From Candidatus Nomurabacteria bacterium GW2011_GWE2_34_25 (lineage in GTDB: Bacteria; Patescibacteriota; Minisyncoccia; Phycocordibacterales; UBA9973), in the NCBI GenBank assembly GCA_000990325.1, contig LBPS01000002.1, positions 9,562-73,561 on the forward strand: DNA of 64,000 nt. The letters run 5' to 3'. The notes below the pieces were generated by a model. It was not told the DNA's origin. It was given only the letters and a program-made list of their open reading frames with translations, and made no database searches. Made by a program: the position numbers and the translations under genes. Every line of letters begins with the position of its first letter. Positions within the stretch are counted from its first letter, which is position 1. This document shows positions 7,361-48,098 of this stretch, piece by piece.

Positions 7361-8560
7361 CTATTTAATCTTCGATTCTGGATAAATTATGTCCCAAAGA
7401 GCACCAGCAACGTTGCGGGGAGTTCCTACGAGGGGGAAGTGGTGGAGGTCTATGAATGGAGCAGAGTTACATTCTATAACTCCACTTCTTGGTTGATCTT
7501 TCCACGAGATCGATACATCGTTCATAATAAAGTCTACTCCGATAAGCGGATCATCGAGTACTTCGGCAATCTTCTCAAGCATTGCTATATTGTCAGGATG
7601 TATGACATCGGTCATATCTGTAATACCACCTCCGACGGCACGACTTGTCTTCTGTCCCAGGGTTACTATCTCTTTGTCTTTTGGAATTGTATCTGGAGTC
7701 TTACCCCAATTGGTAAGTTCTAGGGTAGCTTCATCGTCAAGTTTCAATTGGTGGAAAATAGGTCCGGCTCGAAGCGGATTTTTGTTTTCAATATCTATCA
7801 GTTCTTTTACTGTATGTACACCGTCACCTATAATATAAGCTGGTTCACGACGGAGGCAGGCAACAAATTTTTTACCAATAAGTGTACCTCTAAAGACATA
7901 TCCAGAAAGTTCTTCTTCTATCATAACCCAAGGAGAGAGAAGGTGGGCTGACTTGTAGGCTTTTATAAGTTCTTCTTCTGTTGATATATGAGTTCTCGTA
8001 TGGCGACTTCTTGAGCCTAAGTTTGGCTTTGTTATTACGGGCTTATTTATAGAGTTAAATATTTTAAGAGCCTGCTTCTTACTACTTGCGATACCTCCTT
8101 CTGCTACAGGGATTCCTGCTTTTTTAAAATGTTTTTTCATTTCATTTTTATTGTCCATCCATTCTAAGCCTTTTGGATTGTAGTCTTTAGTACGAGGCAG
8201 AACGTCGAAGAACCGAGTCTCACCTTTAAATTTTGAAGTGAAGATGTCACGGCCAATTCCAAATAGAAGGAATTCATTCATAGCTATATTTCTTTTTTTT
8301 GCTTCTTCCCACAATACTTTAGCCCTTAGGCTATCTTTCTTTGTTGGTTCATATATAAAATTACCTAAGTAGAGTAACGATAAAGTTTTGGTTAATATGG
8401 GTCCTAGCCATTCGAGCTTGTCTTCTGGTATAAGTCTGCCCATCCAGTTTGTCCAAGGCTCGATCATGGCACTTAGCCAGATAGAAATATAAACAAGTTT
8501 ATGATTCACCTGTGCCCCTCCACAATCCGCACAATAATTCTTCTTTTTTGTATCTTGCAT
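7361..8560 (-). CDS. Stand-alone ATP-grasp ligase resembling the N-terminal half of cyanophycin synthetase (CphA); lacks the Mur-ligase half
   Basis: Motif pattern RREPAYIIGDGVHTVKELI...NPLRAG...GGGITDMTDVIHPDNI...IGVDFI matches CphA ATP-grasp region. Confidence 0.5.
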   Translation of the reverse strand: MQDTKKKNYCADCGGAQVNHKLVYISIWLSAMIEPWTNWMGRLIPEDKLEWLGPILTKTLSLLYLGNFIYEPTKKDSLRAKVLWEEAKKRNIAMNEFLLFGIGRDIFTSKFKGETRFFDVLPRTKDYNPKGLEWMDNKNEMKKHFKKAGIPVAEGGIASSKKQALKIFNSINKPVITKPNLGSRSRHTRTHISTEEELIKAYKSAHLLSPWVMIEEELSGYVFRGTLIGKKFVACLRREPAYIIGDGVHTVKELIDIENKNPLRAGPIFHQLKLDDEATLELTNWGKTPDTIPKDKEIVTLGQKTSRAVGGGITDMTDVIHPDNIAMLEKIAEVLDDPLIGVDFIMNDVSISWKDQPRSGVIECNSAPFIDLHHFPLVGTPRNVAGALWDIIYPESKIK

Positions 8561-9296: not shown

Positions 9297-10445
9297 ATGG
9301 ATAATTCACTTAAGAGTATAATATCATCTGGAATAGCTAGCTTTTCTGAAATTTTTTCTGGAGACAAATCTACTAAAAGTGTTTTAGGGGTGGATATTGG
9401 GTCTTCTGCTATAAAGGTTGTCCAACTAAAGAAAAAAAATGGCAAAGCTATTCTTGAGACATACGGAGCGATATCTCTTGGTCCCTATGGAAATACAGAT
9501 ATAGGGTCAGTCACCAATCTACAGGTTGATGACATTGTCCGTGCTTTAATGGACGTTATGAAAGAATCAAATGTGACTGTCTCATCTGGTGTTATGGCTA
9601 TCCCATCATCTTCAAGTTTAATTTTTACTATATCATTACCTGATAAAATTACAGAAGATAAATTTGCTAGTGTTATTCCTATAGAAGCTCGCAAATATAT
9701 TCCAGTACCTATATCTGAAGTTACACTTGATTGGTTTGTATTACCGAAAGATATTGAGTCGTCTGAAAATAATATAATGAACCAAAAAACTCCTCCCATT
9801 GCAGTTGATGTAAAAACAGAAGTTTTGGTTGTTGCTATTCATAATGATATCCTTTCTCGCTATCAAGAAATATTAAAAAAGACAGAACTAAAGTCTGAGT
9901 CATTTGAAATGGAAATTTTTAGTAATATCAGATCGTCTTTTTCTCATGATTTGGCGCCAGTATTACTTATGGATTTTGGAGCTTCAAAGACCAAGTTGTC
10001 TATTATAGAGGAAGGAGTTGTGCATGTTTTTCATGTTGTGAACAGAGGTGGCGCTGATATCACCAAAAATATTGCTTCTTCTCTCAGTATATCTTTTTCT
10101 GAAGCAGAAAAGCTCAAACGTGAAGTAGGACTAGATATGAATAGTAATCAAGAAGTAGCAGATATCATTCGTTTATCCACTGATTATATATTGTCAGACA
10201 CAAATAGTGTTGTGTTTGCTTATCAGAAGAAGTATAATAAAAATATCAGTAAGGTTATTTTGACAGGTGGAGGATCTATTACGAAAGGACTTATGGATAA
10301 AGTTGTAGCTAATTTTCGTACAGAAGTAGTTTTCAGTAACCCTTTTTCTAAAACGGAAGCCCCAGCATTTTTAGGTCCAATATTAGAAGTTAGTGGGCCA
10401 GAGTTTAGTGTCGCGGTTGGTTTGGCTTTGCGACAATTATTTTAA
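9297..10445 (+). CDS. pilM: Type IV pilus assembly protein PilM
   Basis: Actin-like ATPase N-terminus LGVDIGSSAIKVVQLKK typical of PilM; first gene of pilMNO. Confidence 0.8.
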   Translation: MDNSLKSIISSGIASFSEIFSGDKSTKSVLGVDIGSSAIKVVQLKKKNGKAILETYGAISLGPYGNTDIGSVTNLQVDDIVRALMDVMKESNVTVSSGVMAIPSSSSLIFTISLPDKITEDKFASVIPIEARKYIPVPISEVTLDWFVLPKDIESSENNIMNQKTPPIAVDVKTEVLVVAIHNDILSRYQEILKKTELKSESFEMEIFSNIRSSFSHDLAPVLLMDFGASKTKLSIIEEGVVHVFHVVNRGGADITKNIASSLSISFSEAEKLKREVGLDMNSNQEVADIIRLSTDYILSDTNSVVFAYQKKYNKNISKVILTGGGSITKGLMDKVVANFRTEVVFSNPFSKTEAPAFLGPILEVSGPEFSVAVGLALRQLF

Positions 10446-10447
10446 TT

Positions 10448-11721: not shown

Positions 11722-12368
11722 TTATGCATAAAAAGTACAGTAAATTTTTAATAGTATCTTTTGTTGGAGTATGTATACTTGGTGTTTACTCGTACTTTTA
11801 TAATGATTTAAAATCCGAAGCTGCTATAGATGAAGATAGCTCTCTTTCTTCATCTATAAATACAACAAATACGGCTTCTGTAGTTGCAGATTCAGGTACA
11901 AGAGCATCTGAAGATACAGCCTTCTTGATGAAGTTGGCTTCTCTCACAAGAATCAAGATCGACACATCCTTGTTTGCAAGCCAAGCCTTCAAATCTCTTG
12001 TAGATAATGATATCAAGTTAGAGCCAGCTCCATATGGACGTAAAAATCCATTTTCTCCAACAGAAAATTCTATCCTAGTAGATAAATTTGAACCCTCATT
12101 GAAAACTACTAATGCAAGTTCAATTACAAACAAATCTGCTGTTTTGAATGGATCGCTAGAAAATGCAACATCTAATAATATTTATTTTGAATATGGCACA
12201 ACTGAAACTTTAGGGAAGGTGACACCTAAAACTACCCCATCTTTAGTAGGTAGTTTTAGCTCAAATTTGAATTTACTTACACCAAAGACTACATATTATT
12301 ATCGTTCTGTAGCAAATATAAATGGTTTATTATCTTTTGGAGAAATAATGACATTTGACACAAATTAA
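11709..12368 (+). CDS. Pilus-locus hypothetical protein (N-terminal TM, Ser/Thr-rich)
   Basis: 219-aa ORF between pilO and pilB. Confidence 0.35.
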   Translation: MVKIIMHKKYSKFLIVSFVGVCILGVYSYFYNDLKSEAAIDEDSSLSSSINTTNTASVVADSGTRASEDTAFLMKLASLTRIKIDTSLFASQAFKSLVDNDIKLEPAPYGRKNPFSPTENSILVDKFEPSLKTTNASSITNKSAVLNGSLENATSNNIYFEYGTTETLGKVTPKTTPSLVGSFSSNLNLLTPKTTYYYRSVANINGLLSFGEIMTFDTN

Positions 12369-14097
12369 TATGATGCTATTAGAAGAATTAGTAAAACGAG
12401 GCCTTGTTTTAGAGAACCAAGTTCCTGAAATAGTCAAAATTGCAGAAGATAAATATAGTGGTGATATAGAACAAGCGCTTCTTAGTTATAAAATTGATGA
12501 AGATATAATTCTCGAAATAAAAGGGGCTATTTTTAATGTCCCAACAAAGAAAGTAGATCCTGGGTTAATTACAACTTCTATTTTAAAAATAATTCCAAGT
12601 GAGACAGCTAAAACATATCATTTTGTCCCAATTGGCGTAGCGAACAATGTTCTGGAAATTGGAATAACTGACCCTGAAAATGTTCAAGCGATTGATGTTT
12701 TGACTTTTATTACAGCCAAGCTCGATAAGCCTTTTAAGTTGTTTTTAATCAGCAATTCTGTTTATTCCAAAATACTTGAAAAGTATGACATTCTTGGAAG
12801 TGAAGTCGGACAAGCTTTATCGGAGCTTGATCAAGAAATCGCTAATGCAGGAGAAGATAAACAAAAAGATAAAAAAGAACAAAAACCAGGTGAATTAAAA
12901 GAAGAAGAGAAAATAACTGAAGATGCCCCTATTATTAAAATAGTTGCGGTTATTTTAAGACACGCAGTGGAGGGAAATGCTTCAGATATTCATATAGAGC
13001 ATGTAGGGGATCGGATCAAAGTTCGTTTTCGCGTGGATGGGATACTTCATACCTCACTTTCTTTACCTATTAGTGTTTATAATGGAGTTATCGCTCGTAT
13101 CAAAATTCTATCCAAATTAAGACTTGATGAAAAACGTAAACCGCAAGACGGAGGATTCTCTGCTAAGATGGAAGGACGTAAAATTGATTTTCGCGTATCA
13201 ACGATGCCTGCTTATTACGGAGAAAAAGTTGTGATGCGTATACTTGACTCTCAAAAAGGAGTTAAGCCATTGGGCGACCTAGATATGTCTCCTGAGAATC
13301 TTGCTTTGGTTCGTGCAGCCTTGGAACGACCTTATGGATTAATATTGATGACTGGACCTACTGGTTCTGGTAAAACAACAACTCTATACTCTATGATCAA
13401 TGAGCTTGATCATGAAGAAGAAAATGTAGTTTCACTAGAAGATCCAGTGGAGTACCACATTGATGGTATTAATCAATCACAAGTAGCACCTGAGATAGGT
13501 TATACTTTTGCTTCAGGGTTACGTTCTATTTTAAGACAAGACCCAGATGTAATAATGGTGGGAGAGATCCGCGACAAAGAAACAGCCGAGCTTGCTATTC
13601 AAGCTGCTTTGACTGGGCACTTAGTTTTCTCTACACTCCACACCAATAGTGCTGTTGGTGCAATTCCTCGTCTCATAGATATGGGGATTGATCCTTACCT
13701 GATTGCCCCTACTTTAGTTCTTTGTATGGCGCAACGCCTAGCTCGTAAGATATATCCAGATTCTCAAAAACAAACTCCTATGGACGAAGCAACAAAAATA
13801 ATGATAGAGAAACATTTTGAAGATTTACCTAAAGAATTTAAATCAAAAATTAATATAGGTGATTTTGTTTATGAATCAACCCCTTCACCTGAATGCCCAT
13901 CTGGAATGCTTGGACGTGTTCCTGTTTATGAAATGTTTGAAATTGACAAAGAAATGCAACAGGTAATACTTAAAAAACCACAAGAACAAGATATATACAA
14001 GCTAGCTCGTTCGCGCGGAATGCTTACTATTCGAGAAGATGCCATAGTAAAGAGTATAAAAGGGCTCATTCCATTTAAAGAAGTGTATAATTTTTAG
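12355..14097 (+). CDS. pilB: Type IV pilus assembly ATPase PilB (GspE family)
   Basis: N-terminal GSPII_E_N domain, Walker A GPTGSGKTTT, Asp box, tetracysteine-like region. Confidence 0.9.
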   Translation: MTQINMMLLEELVKRGLVLENQVPEIVKIAEDKYSGDIEQALLSYKIDEDIILEIKGAIFNVPTKKVDPGLITTSILKIIPSETAKTYHFVPIGVANNVLEIGITDPENVQAIDVLTFITAKLDKPFKLFLISNSVYSKILEKYDILGSEVGQALSELDQEIANAGEDKQKDKKEQKPGELKEEEKITEDAPIIKIVAVILRHAVEGNASDIHIEHVGDRIKVRFRVDGILHTSLSLPISVYNGVIARIKILSKLRLDEKRKPQDGGFSAKMEGRKIDFRVSTMPAYYGEKVVMRILDSQKGVKPLGDLDMSPENLALVRAALERPYGLILMTGPTGSGKTTTLYSMINELDHEEENVVSLEDPVEYHIDGINQSQVAPEIGYTFASGLRSILRQDPDVIMVGEIRDKETAELAIQAALTGHLVFSTLHTNSAVGAIPRLIDMGIDPYLIAPTLVLCMAQRLARKIYPDSQKQTPMDEATKIMIEKHFEDLPKEFKSKINIGDFVYESTPSPECPSGMLGRVPVYEMFEIDKEMQQVILKKPQEQDIYKLARSRGMLTIREDAIVKSIKGLIPFKEVYNF

Positions 14098-14111: not shown

Positions 14112-14537
14112 TTGTATTATACTATAATAGATATGAAGTCAAATAAAAAAATTCTTATTATTGATGATGATAATTTCCTTTTGGACATGTACTCTTTAAA
14201 GTTCAGTAAATATGATTTTTCTGTTACTGCAGCCGCTGGTCCTGATGTAGCACTTGAAACTCTTCGTTCTGGGCTTCTACCAGATGTTATTCTGCTCGAT
14301 ATTGTTATGCCTGTCATGGACGGATTTGAATTAATGGAAAAAATGAAAGAAGAGAATTTGGCAACTGATGCTATCAAAATTGTGTTATCAAATAGAGGTC
14401 AACCTTCAGATATTGCTCGCGGGGAAGCATTGGGAGCATCTGGCTATATAGTAAAAGCTTCTAGTACCCCATCTGAAGTTATAGAAAAAGTTCAGAGTAT
14501 TATTAACGAGAAAAATAAAACAAAAAATGGATTATAA
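14112..14537 (+). CDS. Stand-alone response-regulator receiver domain protein (PilH/CheY-like)
   Basis: ILIIDDD...LLDIVMPVMDG receiver motifs; 141 aa. Confidence 0.8.
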   Translation: MYYTIIDMKSNKKILIIDDDNFLLDMYSLKFSKYDFSVTAAAGPDVALETLRSGLLPDVILLDIVMPVMDGFELMEKMKEENLATDAIKIVLSNRGQPSDIARGEALGASGYIVKASSTPSEVIEKVQSIINEKNKTKNGL

Positions 14538-15590: not shown

Positions 15591-16796
15591 ATGTTATTTA
15601 AATATGAAACAATCACAAATACAGGAGATAAAAAGATAGGAACTATTGAAGCATCTTCAAAAGATTCCGCTATTTCCGCTCTTCAACGCAGGGGGTTTAT
15701 AGTTTCATCTATATTTGAAGAAGGGGCTAGTAGCAGCATGTTGCACCTATCTTTTTTAGAAAAAAGGGTAAAAATGAAGGACATAGTTATCATGTCACGA
15801 CAGATATCAACTCTTTTTGAAGCACAGGTATCTGCTTTGAAAGCTTTCAATCTTTTGGCTACAAACACTGGGAATCCTGCTTTAGTGAAAATACTAAATA
15901 CTATATCAACTGATATACAATCGGGAGTTTCTATTTCTGAGGCTTTATCTCGTCATCCTGACGCTTTTTCTATTTTTTATATAAACATGGTTAAGGCAGG
16001 AGAAGAATCAGGTAAGCTCACTCAGACATTTTCATATTTAGCGGATTATCTTGATCGTCAGTATCAACTCACTTCTAAAACTAAAAATGCCCTTATCTAT
16101 CCAGCATTTGTCATTGGAGTTTTCTTTATTGTCATGGTATTGATGTTTACATTTATAGTTCCTAAACTTGCTGAGATCATAAAGGACTCTGAACAAGCAA
16201 TTCCATTTTCAACAAAAATAGTTTTTGCCCTAAGTGCATTGATGGTAAATTATGGTTTATATTTAGCAATTGGAGCATGCCTATTGGGAGTATATTTATA
16301 CAAACTTAGTAATACAGGTTCTGGAAAGTTATATTTAGACAAATTAAAGTTGACTTTTCCTGTTATAAAAAATATATATGGTAAATTATACCTTTCTCGT
16401 ATAGCTGACAATATGGACACCATGCTTTCTTCGGGGATCAACATAGTTCGTGCTATTGAACTTACTTCTGTTGTTGTTGGTAATAGAGTTTTTGAAGATT
16501 TATTAAAAGATGCCGCCGAGAAAGTCAAAGGGGGAAGTTCTCTTTCAGATACCTTTTCTTCTTATCCAGAAATTCCACCTATCATGGCAGGGATGATTCA
16601 CGTTGGAGAAGAAACAGGGTCACTGGGGAGTATCTTGAAAACATTAGGTAAATTTTATGCTCGAGAGGTAAACGAAGCAGTTGATACAATGGTCAGTCTC
16701 ATTGAACCTATGATGATTGTTGCTCTAGGCTTAGGAGTAGGACTCCTCCTCACTTCAGTCTTGATGCCGATTTATAATATTGCAGGAGGAATATAA
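15591..16796 (+). CDS. pilC: Type IV pilus inner-membrane platform protein PilC (GspF family)
   Basis: Two GspF repeats, 3 TM, 401 aa. Confidence 0.9.
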   Translation: MLFKYETITNTGDKKIGTIEASSKDSAISALQRRGFIVSSIFEEGASSSMLHLSFLEKRVKMKDIVIMSRQISTLFEAQVSALKAFNLLATNTGNPALVKILNTISTDIQSGVSISEALSRHPDAFSIFYINMVKAGEESGKLTQTFSYLADYLDRQYQLTSKTKNALIYPAFVIGVFFIVMVLMFTFIVPKLAEIIKDSEQAIPFSTKIVFALSALMVNYGLYLAIGACLLGVYLYKLSNTGSGKLYLDKLKLTFPVIKNIYGKLYLSRIADNMDTMLSSGINIVRAIELTSVVVGNRVFEDLLKDAAEKVKGGSSLSDTFSSYPEIPPIMAGMIHVGEETGSLGSILKTLGKFYAREVNEAVDTMVSLIEPMMIVALGLGVGLLLTSVLMPIYNIAGGI

Positions 16797-16811
16797 TAAT
16801 TACTGATTAAT

Positions 16812-16857
16812 CTGTGGACAAGTTTTCTGGAGATTATTACCGAAAACTTGTCCACAG
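16812..16857 (+). terminator. Strong hairpin after pilC (perfect 16-bp stem CTGTGGACAAGTTTTC / GAAAACTTGTCCACAG, 14-nt loop); no T-run, so may be processing or attenuation rather than full termination
   Basis: Perfect inverted repeat read from sequence. Confidence 0.45.
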
Positions 16858-16911
16858 GTGCCAAATCTTGTGCTTTTAATAATCTTATATGATATAATAT
16901 ATTTGTTATAA

Positions 16912-17040
16912 AATAAGGTCGCGTCTTTTGTAAAAAAGACAAATTATTATAAGTTTTAAATATTTTCCGCTAAAGCGGATCCGCATAAAAGCGGAAAATA
17001 AATTATGAAAAAAAATAAAGGTTTTACGCTTATTGAACTT
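16912..17040 (+). repeat. Pilin leader repeat copy 1 (near-identical to 17527-17655): conserved 5' UTR with palindromes GTCTTTTgtaAAAAGAC and TTTTCCGCTAAAGCGGATCCGCATAAAAGCGGAAAA, plus first ~35 codons
   Basis: Two ~130-nt tracts almost identical when aligned by eye, differing at tttaaatatttt versus tttattatatttt. Confidence 0.8.
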
Positions 17041-17511
17041 CTAGTTGTTATTGCCATTATTGGTATTTTGGCTTCAGTCGTTCTCGCTTCACTTACAAGT
17101 GCTAGAACAAAGGCTAAGGTTGCCGCTATGCAATCAACATTGTCTTCTATGAGAGCTCAGGCTGAAATAGGAATAACAAGTAACGGTAAGTATGTTGTAA
17201 ATGTTTGTAGTGCAGGAGCAACTCAGGGTGGCTTAGCAGCATTGATAGCTTCTCTAAATACTACAGCTTCTAAGGTAACAGGTATTAAATGTTCACAGGA
17301 CACTGCAGTTGGTGTAGCTCCACTTAAATGGGCAGTAGAAGCATCTATAGTATCAGGGGGTTCCACTATCTTCTATTGTGCTGATAGTACCGGATATTCA
17401 GGTCTTTCAGGAGGAACTGGTGCCGCTACAGCAATAACAGGTACCGCACAGACACCAGTCGCTACAATTGCTCCAGGATATTCTGCTGCTGATACGGTTT
17501 GTTCATCATAG
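17005..17511 (+). CDS. pilA: Type IV pilin (PilA-like) paralog 1
   Basis: Prepilin leader MKKNKG^FTLIELLVVIAIIGILASVVLA (class III signal, E+5). Confidence 0.9.
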   Translation: MKKNKGFTLIELLVVIAIIGILASVVLASLTSARTKAKVAAMQSTLSSMRAQAEIGITSNGKYVVNVCSAGATQGGLAALIASLNTTASKVTGIKCSQDTAVGVAPLKWAVEASIVSGGSTIFYCADSTGYSGLSGGTGAATAITGTAQTPVATIAPGYSAADTVCSS

Positions 17512-17526
17512 TAGTTTTTATTATTA

Positions 17527-17655
17527 AAATAAGGTCGCGTCTTTTGTAAAAAAGACAAATTATTATAAGTTTATTATATTTTCCGCTAAAGCGGATCCGC
17601 ATAAAAGCGGAAAATAAATTATGAAAAAAAATAAAGGTTTTACGCTTATTGAACT
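17527..17655 (+). repeat. Pilin leader repeat copy 2
   Basis: See copy 1. Confidence 0.8.
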
Positions 17656-18100
17656 CTTAGTTGTTATCGCCATTATTGGTATCTTAGCTTCAGTCGTTCT
17701 TGCTTCTCTTTCTTCAGCTCGTGATAAAGGGAAAGATGCAGCTGTGAAGTCCCAGCTTGCTGCTATGAAAGCTCAAGCAGAACTTTATTATTCTACAGCT
17801 GAAAGTTATTCAGGTATTTGTGCTGCAACTCAAGCAACTAATGGATTTGGTGATACTACTGGTCCAGGATTACTTAAGGCTGCCTCAGATTCTTCTGGTA
17901 TATCAAATACCATTTCTGTAACTTTGGCTACCGCTGGTTTATACAACCAAACATTGTGTCATGATTCAGCTGATGCTTGGGCAGTAGAAGCACCTCTGTC
18001 TACTAGTGTTTCAGGTACACCTAAGATGTATTGTTCAGATAGTACAGGTGTTTCCAAAGAGAAATCTGCTGTTCTTGCAGCAAGTGCTGTCGCTTGTTAA
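17621..18100 (+). CDS. pilA: Type IV pilin (PilA-like) paralog 2
   Basis: Identical prepilin N-terminus; divergent C-terminal globular domain with Cys pair. Confidence 0.9.
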   Translation: MKKNKGFTLIELLVVIAIIGILASVVLASLSSARDKGKDAAVKSQLAAMKAQAELYYSTAESYSGICAATQATNGFGDTTGPGLLKAASDSSGISNTISVTLATAGLYNQTLCHDSADAWAVEAPLSTSVSGTPKMYCSDSTGVSKEKSAVLAASAVAC

Positions 18101-18117
18101 TAAACTATTACAGTTTC

Positions 18118-18150
18118 AAAAAACCAATCCGCATACCGGATTGGTTTTTT
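18118..18150 (+). terminator. Rho-independent terminator after second pilin gene (AAACCAATCCG-catac-CGGATTGGTTT + TTTTT)
   Basis: Stem followed by T-run. Confidence 0.7.
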
Positions 18151-18206
18151 GTTGGTATAGGTGTTTACCTATACCAAAATTTACTGGGGGGTGTTATACT
18201 ATATGT

Positions 18207-19019
18207 ATGGATATTCTTATTTTTGTCTTTATTTTTTTACTAGGAACTATTATTGGAAGTTTTTTGAATGTTGTTATTTTCAGATTTAACACAGGCAAAG
18301 CTATTACAAAAGGGAGATCAATATGTATGACTTGTAGTCGTACGCTACGTTGGTACGAGCTTATTCCAGTTTTGTCTTACTTGTTTCAGCTTGGTAAATG
18401 CAGAAGATGTGCTGAAAAGATATCTCATCAGTACCCTATAGTTGAATTTGTCACAGGATTGATCTTTGTCCTAATAGCGTATCATTTCATCCCAGCACTT
18501 TTCTTTGCTCCGTTTTTATATCTATTCCTTGTTACTTTTTATGTTTTTATTTTTTCAATTTTAATAGTTATTTCTGTTTATGACATTCGTCATAAGGTCA
18601 TTCCAGATAAGCTTGTTGTTATTTTTATTATCACTTCTTTTCTTTCTCTCTTTATAAATCATTTTGGTATTGGACCTCTATTTATTTTGCCATCGATTCC
18701 TTTTGTTATAGCAGGACCAGTATTAGCCCTACCTTTTGCTTTCTTGTGGCTAGTGTCAAAGGGTAAATGGATGGGTCTAGGCGATGCAAAGCTTATGTTA
18801 GGAATTGGTTGGATGCTGGGTCTTTCGATTGGACTTGCTTCGATAATATTGGCCTTTTGGATTGGAGCTATAGTAAGCTTGTCTATTATGTTCTTTACTC
18901 TTAAGAAAATAAGTATGAAGACGGAGATTCCATTTGCCCCATTTCTAATAATAGGAGCCTTGATAGCTTTTCTGTTTAGTCTAAATATTTTTTCATTAGC
19001 CTCTTTATTCCAGTTTTAA
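18207..19019 (+). CDS. pilD: Prepilin peptidase PilD (A24 family)
   Basis: ORF track begins at 18006 inside the pilin gene; conserved protein starts at MDILIFVF (nt 18207), with CxxC...CRRC zinc motif and multi-TM peptidase body. Confidence 0.85.
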   Translation: MDILIFVFIFLLGTIIGSFLNVVIFRFNTGKAITKGRSICMTCSRTLRWYELIPVLSYLFQLGKCRRCAEKISHQYPIVEFVTGLIFVLIAYHFIPALFFAPFLYLFLVTFYVFIFSILIVISVYDIRHKVIPDKLVVIFIITSFLSLFINHFGIGPLFILPSIPFVIAGPVLALPFAFLWLVSKGKWMGLGDAKLMLGIGWMLGLSIGLASIILAFWIGAIVSLSIMFFTLKKISMKTEIPFAPFLIIGALIAFLFSLNIFSLASLFQF

Positions 19020-44405: not shown

Positions 44406-44993
44406 ATGAATATTCAAAGACCAAAATCAAAACAACCAATACCAGAACATGCCACAAAAGTTTTTCAAGGTGTGTTGTTCGATGTTTATCATTGGGATCA
44501 AGAACAGTTTGATGGAAGTAAGAAAACTTTTGAAAAGATAAAAAGATCTGATACTGTCGTTGTTTTCCCTGTACTTAATGACGGGAAGATTATTCTAACT
44601 AAACAGGAACAGCCAGGTAAAGAACCATTTATTGGAACTACGGGAGGAAGAGTAGATGAAGGAGAAGACATACTAACTGCTGCAAAAAGAGAACTATTAG
44701 AAGAAAGTGGTTACGAAGCTGACGAATTTATCCTATGGGATGCTCAACATCCAACTAGTAAGATTGATTGGGTAGTATATACATTTATCGCAAAAGGATT
44801 AAGAAAGATAGATGTACCGCATTTAGATTCAGGAGAAAAAATAGAATTAATGTTTGTGACCTTAGATGAATTAATCGAAGAAGGGATTAAAAAGAATTTT
44901 TCTGAACATGAGATCATAAATCATTTATATGAGGCAAAATTTGATGCAAATAAGAAAGAAGAATTGAGAGAACTATTTAAACCTATAATATAA
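44406..44993 (+). CDS. NUDIX hydrolase
   Basis: Nudix box GGRVDEGEDILTAAKRELLEESG. Confidence 0.85.
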   Translation: MNIQRPKSKQPIPEHATKVFQGVLFDVYHWDQEQFDGSKKTFEKIKRSDTVVVFPVLNDGKIILTKQEQPGKEPFIGTTGGRVDEGEDILTAAKRELLEESGYEADEFILWDAQHPTSKIDWVVYTFIAKGLRKIDVPHLDSGEKIELMFVTLDELIEEGIKKNFSEHEIINHLYEAKFDANKKEELRELFKPII

Positions 44994-46874: not shown

Positions 46875-48098
46875 TTAATGCACTCCTGGGAAAGAATTTC
46901 CTCGTTGTCTTCCGTTGCCCTTTAGTGAGGAGGCATGTTTGATTGCATTGTGTCCAAATTTATCTCTAATCTTATCGCTTACTTCTTCAATAATATTCTT
47001 TGTTTCTGATGTATCTTGTGTACCAAATAAATCCTTGGGTACATCCTCATTACGACGTAGATTACGCAAGGTAATACCAGTCGAGCGAATTTTCTCACCG
47101 TTTTTTAAGAGTTTGTACAACAATGGTTCAACTTTATTCAATATCATATTAGGGGTGTTTGTATATAGTGGCAAGTGGCAGTCATCAGTATGATGGACAA
47201 AATTACTATTTTTTACAAAAAATGATACAGAGTTAGTCATCAGCTCAAGTCTACGTGCATGTTCACATGCACTTTCGATATTTTCTGAAAGTTCAGCAAA
47301 GATTACTTTTGGGTCGCTAGAAGGTGGCTTGAATGTTGCTGTTGATTGTATGGACTTCTGATCTCGGGGATCAGGATTTGCATCAAATTCATACATGGGA
47401 ATACCAGAAAGTTCTTGTTGTAAATGATACAAGGGTAGTGAGAAATATTTCTCAATTTGTTCACCTGAGCAATTTACAAAATCATATGCAGTTTTCATAC
47501 TCATATTTCTTAAACGGGGAATTGTTTGCCTTCCGATACCCCAGACATCATCTATTGAAGTATTTTTAAGTGCGCGCTCTTCATCTTGTTGATTCAATAG
47601 TAATACTAATCCATTTGGTTTCTCTAATTTCGAAGCAGTCTTGGCAAGTGACTTCGTTCGTCCAAGGCCGAATGAATACGTTACCCCGAGAGTATTTTGT
47701 ATTTCATCTTTTATTGTTTTTAATAGCATCTCTGCACCGCCTGCATGAACAATGTCTGAATGTTTTACAATAGCGAAGCATTCATCAATGCTATATATTT
47801 CAACAGACTCAAGGTAAGACGAGATAATACGGTAAACACTATCAGAAATATTTCTGTATAGATCAAAATGATGCGAAAGAATTATAACTCTAGGGAACTC
47901 TTTCTTTATTTTAAATACAGGCATACCACGAGTCACGCCAAGCTTCTTGGCTTCATAACTCATTGCAACAGCGATTCCTCTATCCTCACCGACGACAACA
48001 GGCATCCCTTTATATTTTGGATTTTGTGATATTTCACATGCGACGAAGAAGGAGTCCCCATCAGCATGTAGGAAAAGGTTTTGCGAAACTTTACTCAT
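46875..48098 (-). CDS. dinB: DNA polymerase IV (Y-family, DinB)
   Basis: N-terminus LHADGDSFFVACE (IMS/UmuC family), little-finger C-terminus; 407 aa. Confidence 0.85.
   Translation of the reverse strand: MSKVSQNLFLHADGDSFFVACEISQNPKYKGMPVVVGEDRGIAVAMSYEAKKLGVTRGMPVFKIKKEFPRVIILSHHFDLYRNISDSVYRIISSYLESVEIYSIDECFAIVKHSDIVHAGGAEMLLKTIKDEIQNTLGVTYSFGLGRTKSLAKTASKLEKPNGLVLLLNQQDEERALKNTSIDDVWGIGRQTIPRLRNMSMKTAYDFVNCSGEQIEKYFSLPLYHLQQELSGIPMYEFDANPDPRDQKSIQSTATFKPPSSDPKVIFAELSENIESACEHARRLELMTNSVSFFVKNSNFVHHTDDCHLPLYTNTPNMILNKVEPLLYKLLKNGEKIRSTGITLRNLRRNEDVPKDLFGTQDTSETKNIIEEVSDKIRDKFGHNAIKHASSLKGNGRQRGNSFPGVH

Follow-up and report, generated by a model that had tools for sequence, protein, structure and literature searches.

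Two copies of a conserved and probably structured mRNA leader precede the tandem major pilin genes of a Candidatus Nomurabacteria bacterium

Why are two tandem pilin genes that encode different globular domains preceded by almost the same 96 nucleotides? This question is raised by the type IV pilus cluster in a 64,000-nt stretch of DNA from a Candidatus Nomurabacteria bacterium (contig LBPS01000002.1), called the window below. An initial annotation regarded the repeated tract as an operator or a structured 5′ untranslated region (UTR) that drives two alternative major pilins. Our analyses indicate that it is a conserved structured mRNA leader specific to the major pilins of one class of the candidate phyla radiation (CPR), an element that is undescribed but conventional in kind. 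We lean, with some reserve, toward a role in cis on the RNA, in which the leader would affect message stability or translation.

The window is part of contig Ga0209319_1000180 of the Joint Genome Institute metagenome 3300025010, from which approximately 84 kb was read, i.e., the window and about 20 kb of flanks. Its G+C content is 34%, genes identical to its own were found in Rifle aquifer assemblies, and the nearest genomes are metagenome-assembled genomes of Candidatus Nomurabacteria/Paceibacteria. We compared it with 80 related pilC loci, inspecting about 130 nt 5′ of each major-pilin-like gene. L-numbers (L002, L003, etc.) denote loci or contigs of relatives or metagenomes, and W denotes the window. 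The features on which the argument rests are all on the plus strand.

16868 to 16873: TTGTGC, conserved upstream hexamer 19 nt before the −10 element, kept in clade A
16890 to 16898: extended −10 promoter TGATATAAT, with a predicted start at about 16905; TGnTATAAT is kept in relatives
16909 to 17004: leader copy 1, predicted 5′ UTR of pilin 1 (model score, 70.8 bits), made of the core TAAGGTCGC (16914 to 16922), hairpin A (16923 to 16940), the spacer AAATTATTATAAG (16941 to 16953), and twin hairpin B (16961 to 17000)
17005 to 17511: pilin 1, 168 amino acids, class III signal peptide MKKNKG/FTLIE, Pfam N_methyl; its orthologues are the first pilins of L003 and L020
17525 to 17620: leader copy 2, intercistronic spacer, with hairpin A at 17539 to 17556 and hairpin B at 17577 to 17616 (model score, 63.2 bits)
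17621 to 18100: pilin 2, 159 amino acids; its orthologues are the second pilins of L003 and L020
18117 to 18151: canonical intrinsic terminator (A-run, 15-bp stem, T-run) at the end of the predicted pilin 1-pilin 2 unit

The two leaders form a direct repeat with an offset of 616 nt, in which 93 of 96 bases match. All three differences are clustered at 16957 to 16959, with TAA in copy 1 and ATT in copy 2. Identity runs on through the first 35 nt of the coding sequences (17005 to 17039), so that the near-identical tract annotated upstream of the two PilA-like genes extends into both of them. Farther into the shared N-terminal part only synonymous differences were found, seven in codons 13 to 30. 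The first 30 residues are identical, which confirms the shared N terminus and shortens it from the 35 codons or so first proposed. The divergence of the globular domains was also borne out, as nucleotide identity drops from 65% over 17110 to 17166 to 34% farther on, and the proteins are 47% identical overall. Upstream of 16909, similarity falls abruptly to 41%. Both open reading frames (ORFs) begin with MKKNKGFTLIELLVVIAIIGILASVVLASL and have PF07963 (N_methyl) on record, and both pilins possess a class III signal peptide with the G/FTLIE cleavage/methylation motif and a hydrophobic N-terminal helix.

The position of the repeat relative to the promoter was estimated from the habits of this genome. 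The ends of −10 hexamers peak sharply 6 nt before ATG, with 12 genes at exactly that distance and 24 of 67 at 5 to 9 nt (examples are found at 44406, 44996, 42518, 48142, 46875 to 48098 on the minus strand, and 18207). Applying the 6-nt spacing of leaderless genes to the pilin promoter places the start at about 16905. The repeat thus begins about 4 nt inside the predicted transcript and excludes the promoter, and its location between the predicted start and the ATG fits the conserved TGnTATAAT element. Judged from these sequence features, it is a transcribed leader and not a promoter. The idea that the duplicated tract drives the pilins was therefore abandoned, since the promoter lies outside the repeat and copy 2 has neither a promoter nor a terminator upstream. 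The layout is constant at the first pilin after pilC in 80 loci, where TGnTATAAT is preceded by the 9-mer box TTATCCACA (or the inverse of this box) and then a TTGYRC hexamer and is followed, about 6 nt past the −10 element, by ATTAAAAAnTAAG(G)TCG, one or more hairpins, a AATTATTA motif, an AU-only stretch, and the ATG. The TTGTGC hexamer at 16868 to 16873 was rejected as a canonical −35 element because of its 19-nt spacing to the −10 element. A sigma-54 promoter was rejected as well, as the GG-to-GC spacing is 11 rather than 10 in the TGTGGATAAC-N4-TTGC of relatives, the −24 element does not fit, the window's clade has the box in the opposite orientation, and there is no enhancer-binding protein.

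Shine-Dalgarno sequences are nearly absent from this genome, with even a 4-nt match before only 5 of 67 long ORFs. Since many first genes also appear to be leaderless, a structured pilin leader of 100 nt is exceptional here. Operons for the most part seem to open with a leaderless gene, and AATAATT-ATG marks the starts of the internal genes.

We then asked whether the leader is more conserved than neutral sequence, a check set beforehand. Leader identity between the window and L002, L004, and L007 was 87 to 91%, at a PilC identity of 80 to 82%. In contrast, the four-fold degenerate sites of pilC in the same loci were 38 to 54% identical to those of the window, with 35% expected by chance. This difference indicates that the leader is under selection, above the neutral background, and conservation in related genomes, which the initial annotation had made the test of a functional tract, was found.

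To describe the leader beyond pairwise identity, a covariance model, R1, was built from seven cleanly aligned leaders, and the other leaders were realigned with it; a MAFFT alignment of all clade A leaders was discarded because the 3′ arm was misplaced in several sequences. In 948 kb searched on both strands, R1 gave 18 matches, 17 of them on the coding strand just 5′ of a pilin start codon, including both window copies and that of the second pilin of L020. The remaining match was at chance level (E = 0.96). In nine more metagenome loci the model found one match per pilin locus. The element is restricted to pilin genes in these sequences.

Hairpin A has the sequence GTCTTTT-GTAA-AAAAGAC at 16923 to 16940 and 17539 to 17556. 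The annotated GTCTTTT/AAAAGAC palindrome is thus present in both leaders, and its loop is corrected to four nucleotides, GTAA. In relatives the arms are changed yet paired, to TTCTTTT/AAAAGAA (L002 and L004), GTCTCTA/TAGAGAC (L012), GTCTTCTT/AAGAAGAC (L014), GTGTA/TACAC (L080), and GTTCTTC/GAAGAAC (L175), and loop length varies from 3 to 9 nt. In the alignment fitted to the model, which favors structure and in which most stem columns hardly vary, 94.9% of the cells pair, compared with 53 to 76% when the partners are slid. Three pairs are altered on both sides, a value reached in 0 of 500 shuffles. The non-Watson-Crick cells comprise four G-U and one C-A, fitting a sense RNA. The covariation support for an RNA structure of hairpin A is real but modest.

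The leaders of other clades contain other hairpins. In the second clade, GC-rich hairpins of many unrelated sequences lie between AAGTCGAAA and ATTATTAG. In the sister (third) clade, which has a different pilin leader, we observed a hairpin, ATTACAAA-loop-TTTGTAAT, that begins at the predicted +1/+2, followed by a perfect 16-nt palindrome, TAATAATCGATTATTA (L028, L034, L038, L042, L044, L049, L051, L054, L065 to L068, L071 to L074, L076, L078, L081, and others). In 884 kb this palindrome is confined to 22 loci, where it lies about 40 to 90 nt 5′ of the pilin ATG. In L065 and L072 it is changed to GATTGTTA, and pairing is then kept only as U-G in the RNA. A hairpin within a few nucleotides of the 5′ end, as in 5′-terminal stabilizers, is thus found in the sister clade and not in the window.

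No promoter- or terminator-like site was detected between the pilin 1 stop codons and leader copy 2. Because copy 2 lacks both, pilin 2 is probably cotranscribed with pilin 1, by read-through from the pilin 1 promoter. The terminator at 18117 to 18151 is of the same type as the other terminators of the window, and it is the sole canonical one in the pilin unit. Among the spacers between tandem pilins in relatives, 32 of 51 have an extended −10 element of their own, usually behind a terminator. In L003, L016, L020, and L007, where such a spacer is short and has no promoter, the core (AGTCG/AGGTC ... ATTATTA) is retained, together with hairpin A in L020.

Hairpin B corresponds to the compound palindrome TTTTCCGCTAAAGCGGATCCGCATAAAAGCGGAAAA, found at 16963 to 16998 and 17579 to 17614, with TCCGC/GCGGA motifs in both leaders as annotated. 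TCCGC-N6-GCGGA occurs twice in the window, for 0.01 occurrences expected. The sequence can fold into two adjacent 5-bp hairpins or into a single outer stem of 11 bp capped by a small hairpin; the two-hairpin fold is favored by L061, L077, and L046, relatives in which two hairpins that differ in their stems lie side by side. Hairpin B is present in W, L002, L004, and L007 and absent from L003, L006, and L008, at equal PilC distance. On this distribution it is an optional module, polymorphic between close relatives. Where it is present, its stems are invariant and its loops variable across species. In 884 kb of relatives, 13 of 55 CCGC..GCGG hairpins fall in pilin leaders.

A metagenome scan for TTTTCCGCNNNNGCGGATCCGC returned at least 120 stretches (L082 to L201). 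Nine of the matches listed are Nomurabacteria-type leaders that lie about 20 nt 5′ of a pilin ATG and are preceded by the core and hairpin A; the others listed belong to unrelated contigs, mostly of higher G+C content. Among the matches listed, 75 of the 113 unrelated ones also show a second hairpin whose stem is again TCCGC(C)/(G)GCGGA, with GGATCC at the center, although the last arm was not required by the search pattern. Some of these twin hairpins are multicopy repeats at contig ends with identical flanks, and others sit between a TTGACA promoter and a Shine-Dalgarno sequence with its ATG. An Rfam search of ten unrelated twin-hairpin loci yielded only a tRNA and nothing on the motif. The search for further genomic copies of the GCGGA palindrome suggested in the initial annotation came out negative, as there was none in the approximately 84 kb of the source contig beyond the two leaders. 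The family-like abundance of repetitive extragenic palindromic (REP) sequences or miniature inverted-repeat transposable elements was not observed in these 84 kb, nor in 884 kb of relatives, where one more twin hairpin was found (L033). At 8150 to 8190 of L033, that twin hairpin, TTTTCCGCC-CAA-GGCGGA-TCCGCC-TCT-GGCGGA, lies in frame within pilD and encodes ..KFSAQGGSASGGQE...

Several other explanations for the leader were considered and discarded. As terminators or attenuators, hairpins A and B lack a following U-run, and the T-run and A-run of hairpin B are engaged in base pairs. Sequestration of a Shine-Dalgarno sequence by hairpin B was dismissed, because the genome hardly uses such sequences and relatives without hairpin B have none. 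No start codon is conserved in the leader, which argues against a leader peptide or small ORFs. With Rfam 15 (c-di-GMP riboswitches included), only tRNAs passed the gathering threshold in the whole window, and at E ≤ 10 the segment from 16750 to 17700 gave just subthreshold hairpin matches of the microRNA or small nucleolar RNA type. Complements of the core motif, as trans-pairing partners, occur in the window at chance level only. Literature searches found no description of a pilin leader of this kind. On the minus strand, ORFs 16772 to 16942 and 17373 to 17558 have their first 11 residues (MSFLQKTRPYF) in common only because each opens at a TTG of hairpin A, within the repeat. Nothing marks these ORFs as genes.

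The near-identity of the two leaders could result from a recent duplication or from later exchange between older genes. Pilin 1 and pilin 2 each have an orthologue of their own in L003 and L020, and their globular parts are 51 to 63% identical to those orthologues, compared with about 38% to each other. The pair therefore predates these species, which makes the leader identity secondary and favors gene conversion between ancient paralogues over recent duplication. Tandem pilins in relatives (L002, L003, and L016) have near-identical N-terminal codons and differing upstream regions; in L002, 36 of 36 and 59 of 60 nucleotides match within the first 96 coding bases. This pattern indicates concerted evolution confined to the coding 5′ end. 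An identical tract spanning the whole leader, the optional hairpin B included, was found in the window only, and from the comparative pattern it looks like the result of gene conversion. In L035, a terminator-flanked promoter, the leader, and the N terminus are duplicated exactly.

A look-up of exact pilin 2 matches retrieved 19 long contigs with the two-gene arrangement and two short contigs, L207 (991 nt) and L208 (695 nt), that bear on a further feature of the repeat.

16960 to 17039 (+): 80-nt block identical to 17576 to 17655, crossover interval of a putative deletion haplotype (L207 and L208)

Base for base, the two short contigs correspond to window positions 16793 to 17039 joined to 17656 onward. 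Their sequence leads from the end of pilC through the hairpin behind it, the promoter, and leader copy 1 (in its TAA version) directly into pilin 2. This is the exact product expected of a crossover within the 80-nt block, with deletion of pilin 1 and leader copy 2. The haplotype may be a real population variant or a chimera of low-coverage, iterative-k assembly. Logan contigs could not be used to find further copies of the junction, as they break where a 31-mer enters the repeat. If the haplotype is real, it would represent pilin variation by repeat recombination in natural groundwater populations. With respect to the coregulated or switching pilins initially proposed, a leader common to both genes was verified, and switching gains a lead from these candidate recombinants without pilin 1.

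We propose the following model. The tract would be the 5′ untranslated leader that is typical of major-pilin mRNAs in the Candidatus Nomurabacteria lineage, present twice at this locus. Transcription would start at about 16905 from the extended −10 promoter at 16890 to 16898, and the transcript would present, in order, a conserved single-stranded 5′ motif, AAUAAGGUCGC, the 7-bp hairpin A, a conserved AU-rich AAAUUAUUA spacer, and the GC-rich twin hairpin B, which would end 4 nt before the AUG in a message devoid of a Shine-Dalgarno sequence. The ancient pilin paralogues would be transcribed as one unit that ends at the terminator at 18117 to 18151. The ancestral intercistronic spacer would have been a short leader-like sequence, overwritten with a full leader by gene conversion anchored on the left in the conserved core and on the right in the N-terminal codons. 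In this model the leader would most likely determine, for each pilin cistron, how long the mRNA lasts, how translation is initiated, or both. Its hairpins might, for instance, block 5′-to-3′ decay by RNase J, and each cistron would keep a protected 5′ end after read-through or processing. Hairpins are a classical obstacle to 5′-to-3′ exonucleases such as RNase J. RNase J, RNase III, and PNPase are reportedly retained in CPR genomes, RNase Y not being among the enzymes kept (PMC12641178).

Several observations weigh against this model. Its start site and the cotranscription of the two genes are predictions from sequence. Most stem positions of hairpin A are conserved as sequence, the covariation comes from few species, and the hairpin is weak, at about −5 to −7 kcal/mol. 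It also starts approximately 18 nt from the predicted 5′ end, farther than classical 5′ stabilizers tolerate. The core AAGGTCGC and the spacer AAATTATTA are kept as sequence, which a protein-binding site on DNA would explain equally. As for hairpin B, it is not essential to leader function, since it is absent from the equally close L003, L006, and L008. Its two alternative folds are indistinguishable, and the stems of most of its additional examples were fixed by the search pattern, so that their covariation is uninformative. Moreover, ending 4 nt before the AUG, it could hinder initiation as well as help it.

Other readings were weighed against a role of the tract in the RNA. The conserved blocks and palindromes might be operators for a DNA-binding regulator, such as a repressor bound at +10 to +95, that controls both pilins transcriptionally. 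The conservation of AAGGTCGC and AAATTATTA as sequence blocks, the separate conserved box upstream of the promoter, and the sister-clade palindrome TAATAATCGATTATTA, perfect over 16 bp and found in the same place in 22 loci and nowhere else, would fit this idea. We nevertheless consider it unlikely. Because copy 2 has no promoter to regulate, a role at the RNA level is favored. The 3- to 9-nt spacing of the hairpin A half-sites and the compensatory changes of the arms do not conform to a palindromic operator, changes of the G-U type pair only in the sense RNA (L020, L021, and, with GATTGTTA, L065 and L072 of the sister clade), and unrelated hairpin sequences occupy the same position in relatives. 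In addition, no DNA-binding protein is encoded in the pilus cluster, whose regulator has only a receiver domain on record. Of the initial proposal, the nonneutral character of the tract is upheld by its conservation across species, a structured 5′ UTR is supported by the covariation and the G-U pairs, and the operator fits poorly. An internal promoter in copy 2, AAGACA-17-TATATT (17552 to 17580), would allow pilin 2 to be transcribed independently, with the three-base difference sharpening that promoter: a consensus scan flags the site in copy 2 only, where the TAA-to-ATT difference converts AATATT to TATATT. Yet it matches at 9 of 12 positions and lacks the TG extension of the real promoters of this genome (TGnTATAAT), and such sites are not above chance, with 7 found for 5.7 expected in shuffled sequence. 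A start there would also fall within hairpin B, and we find this promoter quite improbable.

The remaining alternatives concern the origin of the repeat and of hairpin B. That a recent tandem duplication of a pilin gene with its upstream DNA left a functionless leader behind would account for the 97% identity of the two copies. This is contradicted by the 87 to 91% conservation of the leader between species whose synonymous sites are saturated and by the separate orthologues in L003 and L020, and the seven synonymous differences just downstream of the identical tract also speak against it; neutrality is therefore highly improbable. It is possible, although we doubt it, that the two copies, with 131 nt of near-identity, serve mainly as a recombination substrate for pilin variation, which would be compatible with the RNA leader. 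A crossover could delete pilin 1 and put pilin 2 behind the promoter, conversion could move sequence between the genes, and uptake through competence could restore or exchange cassettes. L207 and L208, with the TAA of copy 1 upstream and pilin 2 downstream, the abrupt ends of the identity tract on both sides, as in a conversion tract, and the age of the pair, which makes the identity secondary, all point in that direction. However, there are just two such contigs, both short and possibly assembled twice from the same reads. Iterative-k assemblers can bridge an 80-nt repeat at low coverage, the 19 long contigs hold the two-gene arrangement, and deletion by direct-repeat recombination is one-way. 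Recombination is not the reason for the existence of the leader, as the leader is conserved in single-copy species. A similarly doubtful explanation is that hairpin B is a small palindromic insertion element that landed in one leader, was later copied to the second, and is carried as a passenger. REP sequences and Rickettsia palindromic elements are small palindromic insertions, some of which lie in frame in genes. Hairpin B resembles them by its compound-palindrome design, shared with the 75 of 113 unrelated metagenome matches listed, some of them multicopy at contig ends, by its patchy presence among equally related species, and by the single in-frame copy in pilD of L033. It differs from them in that it is not multicopy here, with no other copy in the approximately 84 kb nor, save for L033, in the 884 kb of relatives, and in that neither a transposase nor a target duplication is evident. 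Its invariant stems with variable loops suggest constraint, and TCCGC/GCGGA hairpins recur in pilin leaders of the second clade (L040, L057, L061, and L077).

A structured leader that acts on the pilin message has counterparts in known systems. It is not a new principle, as structured leaders, pilin paralogues, and concerted evolution of pilin N termini are all familiar. In the Escherichia coli ompA and Bacillus subtilis aprE leaders, 5′-proximal stem-loops protect the mRNA from RNase E or RNase J1. By analogy, the pilin leader may belong with them, having short 5′ UTR hairpins before a very highly expressed envelope or secreted protein gene and a structure conserved over sequence; in the sister clade, the hairpin also begins at +1/+2 of the predicted transcript. 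The window differs by a weak hairpin A whose distance from the predicted 5′ end is about 18 nt and which follows a conserved single-stranded motif. Pilin antigenic variation in Neisseria is produced by pilE/pilS gene conversion. As in that system (background in PMC4402397), pilin paralogues here have conserved 5′ segments that could provide homology for nonreciprocal recombination. The differences are that the window has two complete, expressed-looking tandem genes, without silent cassettes or a G-quadruplex (G4) element, and that its sole variant is the candidate deletion in L207 and L208. In the Clostridium perfringens pilD-pilB2-pilC2-pilA2 operon, RNase Y processing between pilC2 and pilA2 was proposed to stabilize the pilin mRNA, according to the summary of Obana et al. 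(2017) in PMC6958937, a paper that, where it treats this model, disputes it after finding a separate pilA2 promoter. The likeness lies in the order of pilC and the major pilin and in a proposed RNA-level event in the spacer between them that would let the pilin message accumulate to higher levels. The two loci differ in that there is no sequence similarity, the window pilin has its own promoter, and the leader is repeated between two pilins. As outlined in a preprint, the Acinetobacter baumannii small RNA (sRNA) Arp represses pilin translation via the pilA 5′ region (bioRxiv 10.1101/2025.07.19.665661). There, as would be the case in the window, a major type IV pilin is controlled posttranscriptionally by way of the leader of its mRNA. 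Arp is a trans-acting sRNA of a proteobacterium that uses Shine-Dalgarno sequences, in contrast to the window leader, for which the analysis revealed no partner RNA.

There is hardly any knowledge of how the uncultured classes of Patescibacteria regulate their genes. The pilin leader provides a defined cis-element, with its promoter-upstream box, extended −10 element, and modular hairpins, that is conserved in dozens of species and contrasts with the messages of a genome in which leaders and Shine-Dalgarno sequences otherwise seem to be dispensed with. It offers metatranscriptome 5′-end mapping a concrete target and could define a new RNA family.

The region between pilC and the pilin promoter contains a second structure, and further signals lie beyond the pilin terminator.

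15591 to 16796 (+): pilC, T2SSF platform protein (ORF; Pfam T2SSF_N/T2SSF), last gene of the upstream pilM..pilB-response regulator-pilT-pilC unit
16812 to 16857 (+): perfect 16-bp hairpin with a 14-nt loop and no T-run, arms at 16812 to 16827 and 16842 to 16857
16848 to 16856 (+): box TTGTCCACA, an 8/9 match to the DnaA-box 9-mer TTATCCACA, 36 nt upstream of the −10 hexamer, in the 3′ arm of the pilC hairpin
18192 to 18209 (+): extended −10 element TGTTATACT, six nt before the pilD ATG (18207)

The pilC hairpin agrees with its initial description. Its folding z-score is −5.5, and the 111-nt segment around it folds with −33 kcal/mol. It was rejected as an intrinsic terminator, because the GC-rich stem-loop is followed by GTGCCAAATCTTG and not by a T-run, unlike the real terminators of this genome, which carry A-run/T-run arms. 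At the same position, L002 and L004 have perfect 20-bp hairpins whose base contains the box and whose distal stems are unrelated, and other relatives have ordinary terminators. The structure itself thus seems to be selected. An inverted copy of TTGTCCACA lies in the 5′ arm (16813 to 16821), and the hairpin, perhaps made by inversion of the promoter box, may serve the upstream operon as its 3′ end, as a barrier, or as a site for RNase III.

To our knowledge, no pilin gene is known to be controlled by DnaA. The box is found as TTATCCACA(G) at 36 to 37 nt upstream of the −10 element in the window's clade and, inverted (TGTGGATAAC), at 29 to 31 nt upstream in the second clade. Perfect TTATCCACA 9-mers number 45 in 884 kb of relatives, for 10.6 expected, and 28 of the 45 are just upstream of a pilin promoter. 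The spacing of the 9-mer upstream of the major pilin promoter is fixed in dozens of species (L002 to L081). The 9-mer corresponds to the DnaA-box consensus, and DnaA acts at promoters through single or paired boxes (PMC11317965, PMC8203912). The pilin-promoter box thus equals the consensus in many relatives and matches it at 8 of 9 positions in the window, a likeness by sequence alone. Its orientation flips between clades, and no dnaA gene or box cluster is nearby: neither the window nor the genes called in 20 kb beyond it showed a DnaA signature. It is conceivable, if improbable, that the whole locus is a recombination-driven variation system, in which the leader and N-terminal codons would serve as a portable homology arm for conversion, deletion, and possibly exchange by pilus-dependent uptake, and in which expression would be tied to the replication initiator through this 9-mer.

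Downstream of the pilins, pilD is apparently a separate, leaderless transcription unit, as judged from its extended −10 element. A second perfect hairpin, of 11 bp (TTGGTATAGGT-gttt-ACCTATACCAA), is found at 18152 to 18177, between the pilin terminator and the pilD promoter.

The type IV pilus cluster is carried on the plus strand and comprises pilM, three small genes, pilB, a response regulator gene, pilT, pilC, the two pilin genes, pilD, and minor pilin genes. According to PMC11623550 and PMC10187176, cultivated Patescibacteria use type IV pili for host attachment, motility, and DNA uptake. Two more genes of the cluster are as follows.

12355 to 14097 (+): pilB
14112 to 14537: response regulator between pilB and pilT, 134 amino acids as called, only PF00072 on record

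Pfam assigns pilB to T2SSE, pilC to T2SSF_N/T2SSF, and pilD to Peptidase_A24, so that an assembly ATPase, a platform protein, and a prepilin peptidase are all found in the genomic context of the pilins. The response regulator has a receiver domain alone on record, without an output or DNA-binding domain, and is by this content CheY/PilH-like rather than a transcription factor. For the same reason, its direct binding to DNA is unlikely.

At the junction between pilM and the next gene (10406 to 10447), we observed GTCGCGGTTGGTTTGGCTTTGCGAC followed by AATTATTTTAATT-ATG. This arrangement is loosely like the leader layout, with a GTCGC hairpin, an ATTATT motif, and an ATG, and it may be a coincidence.

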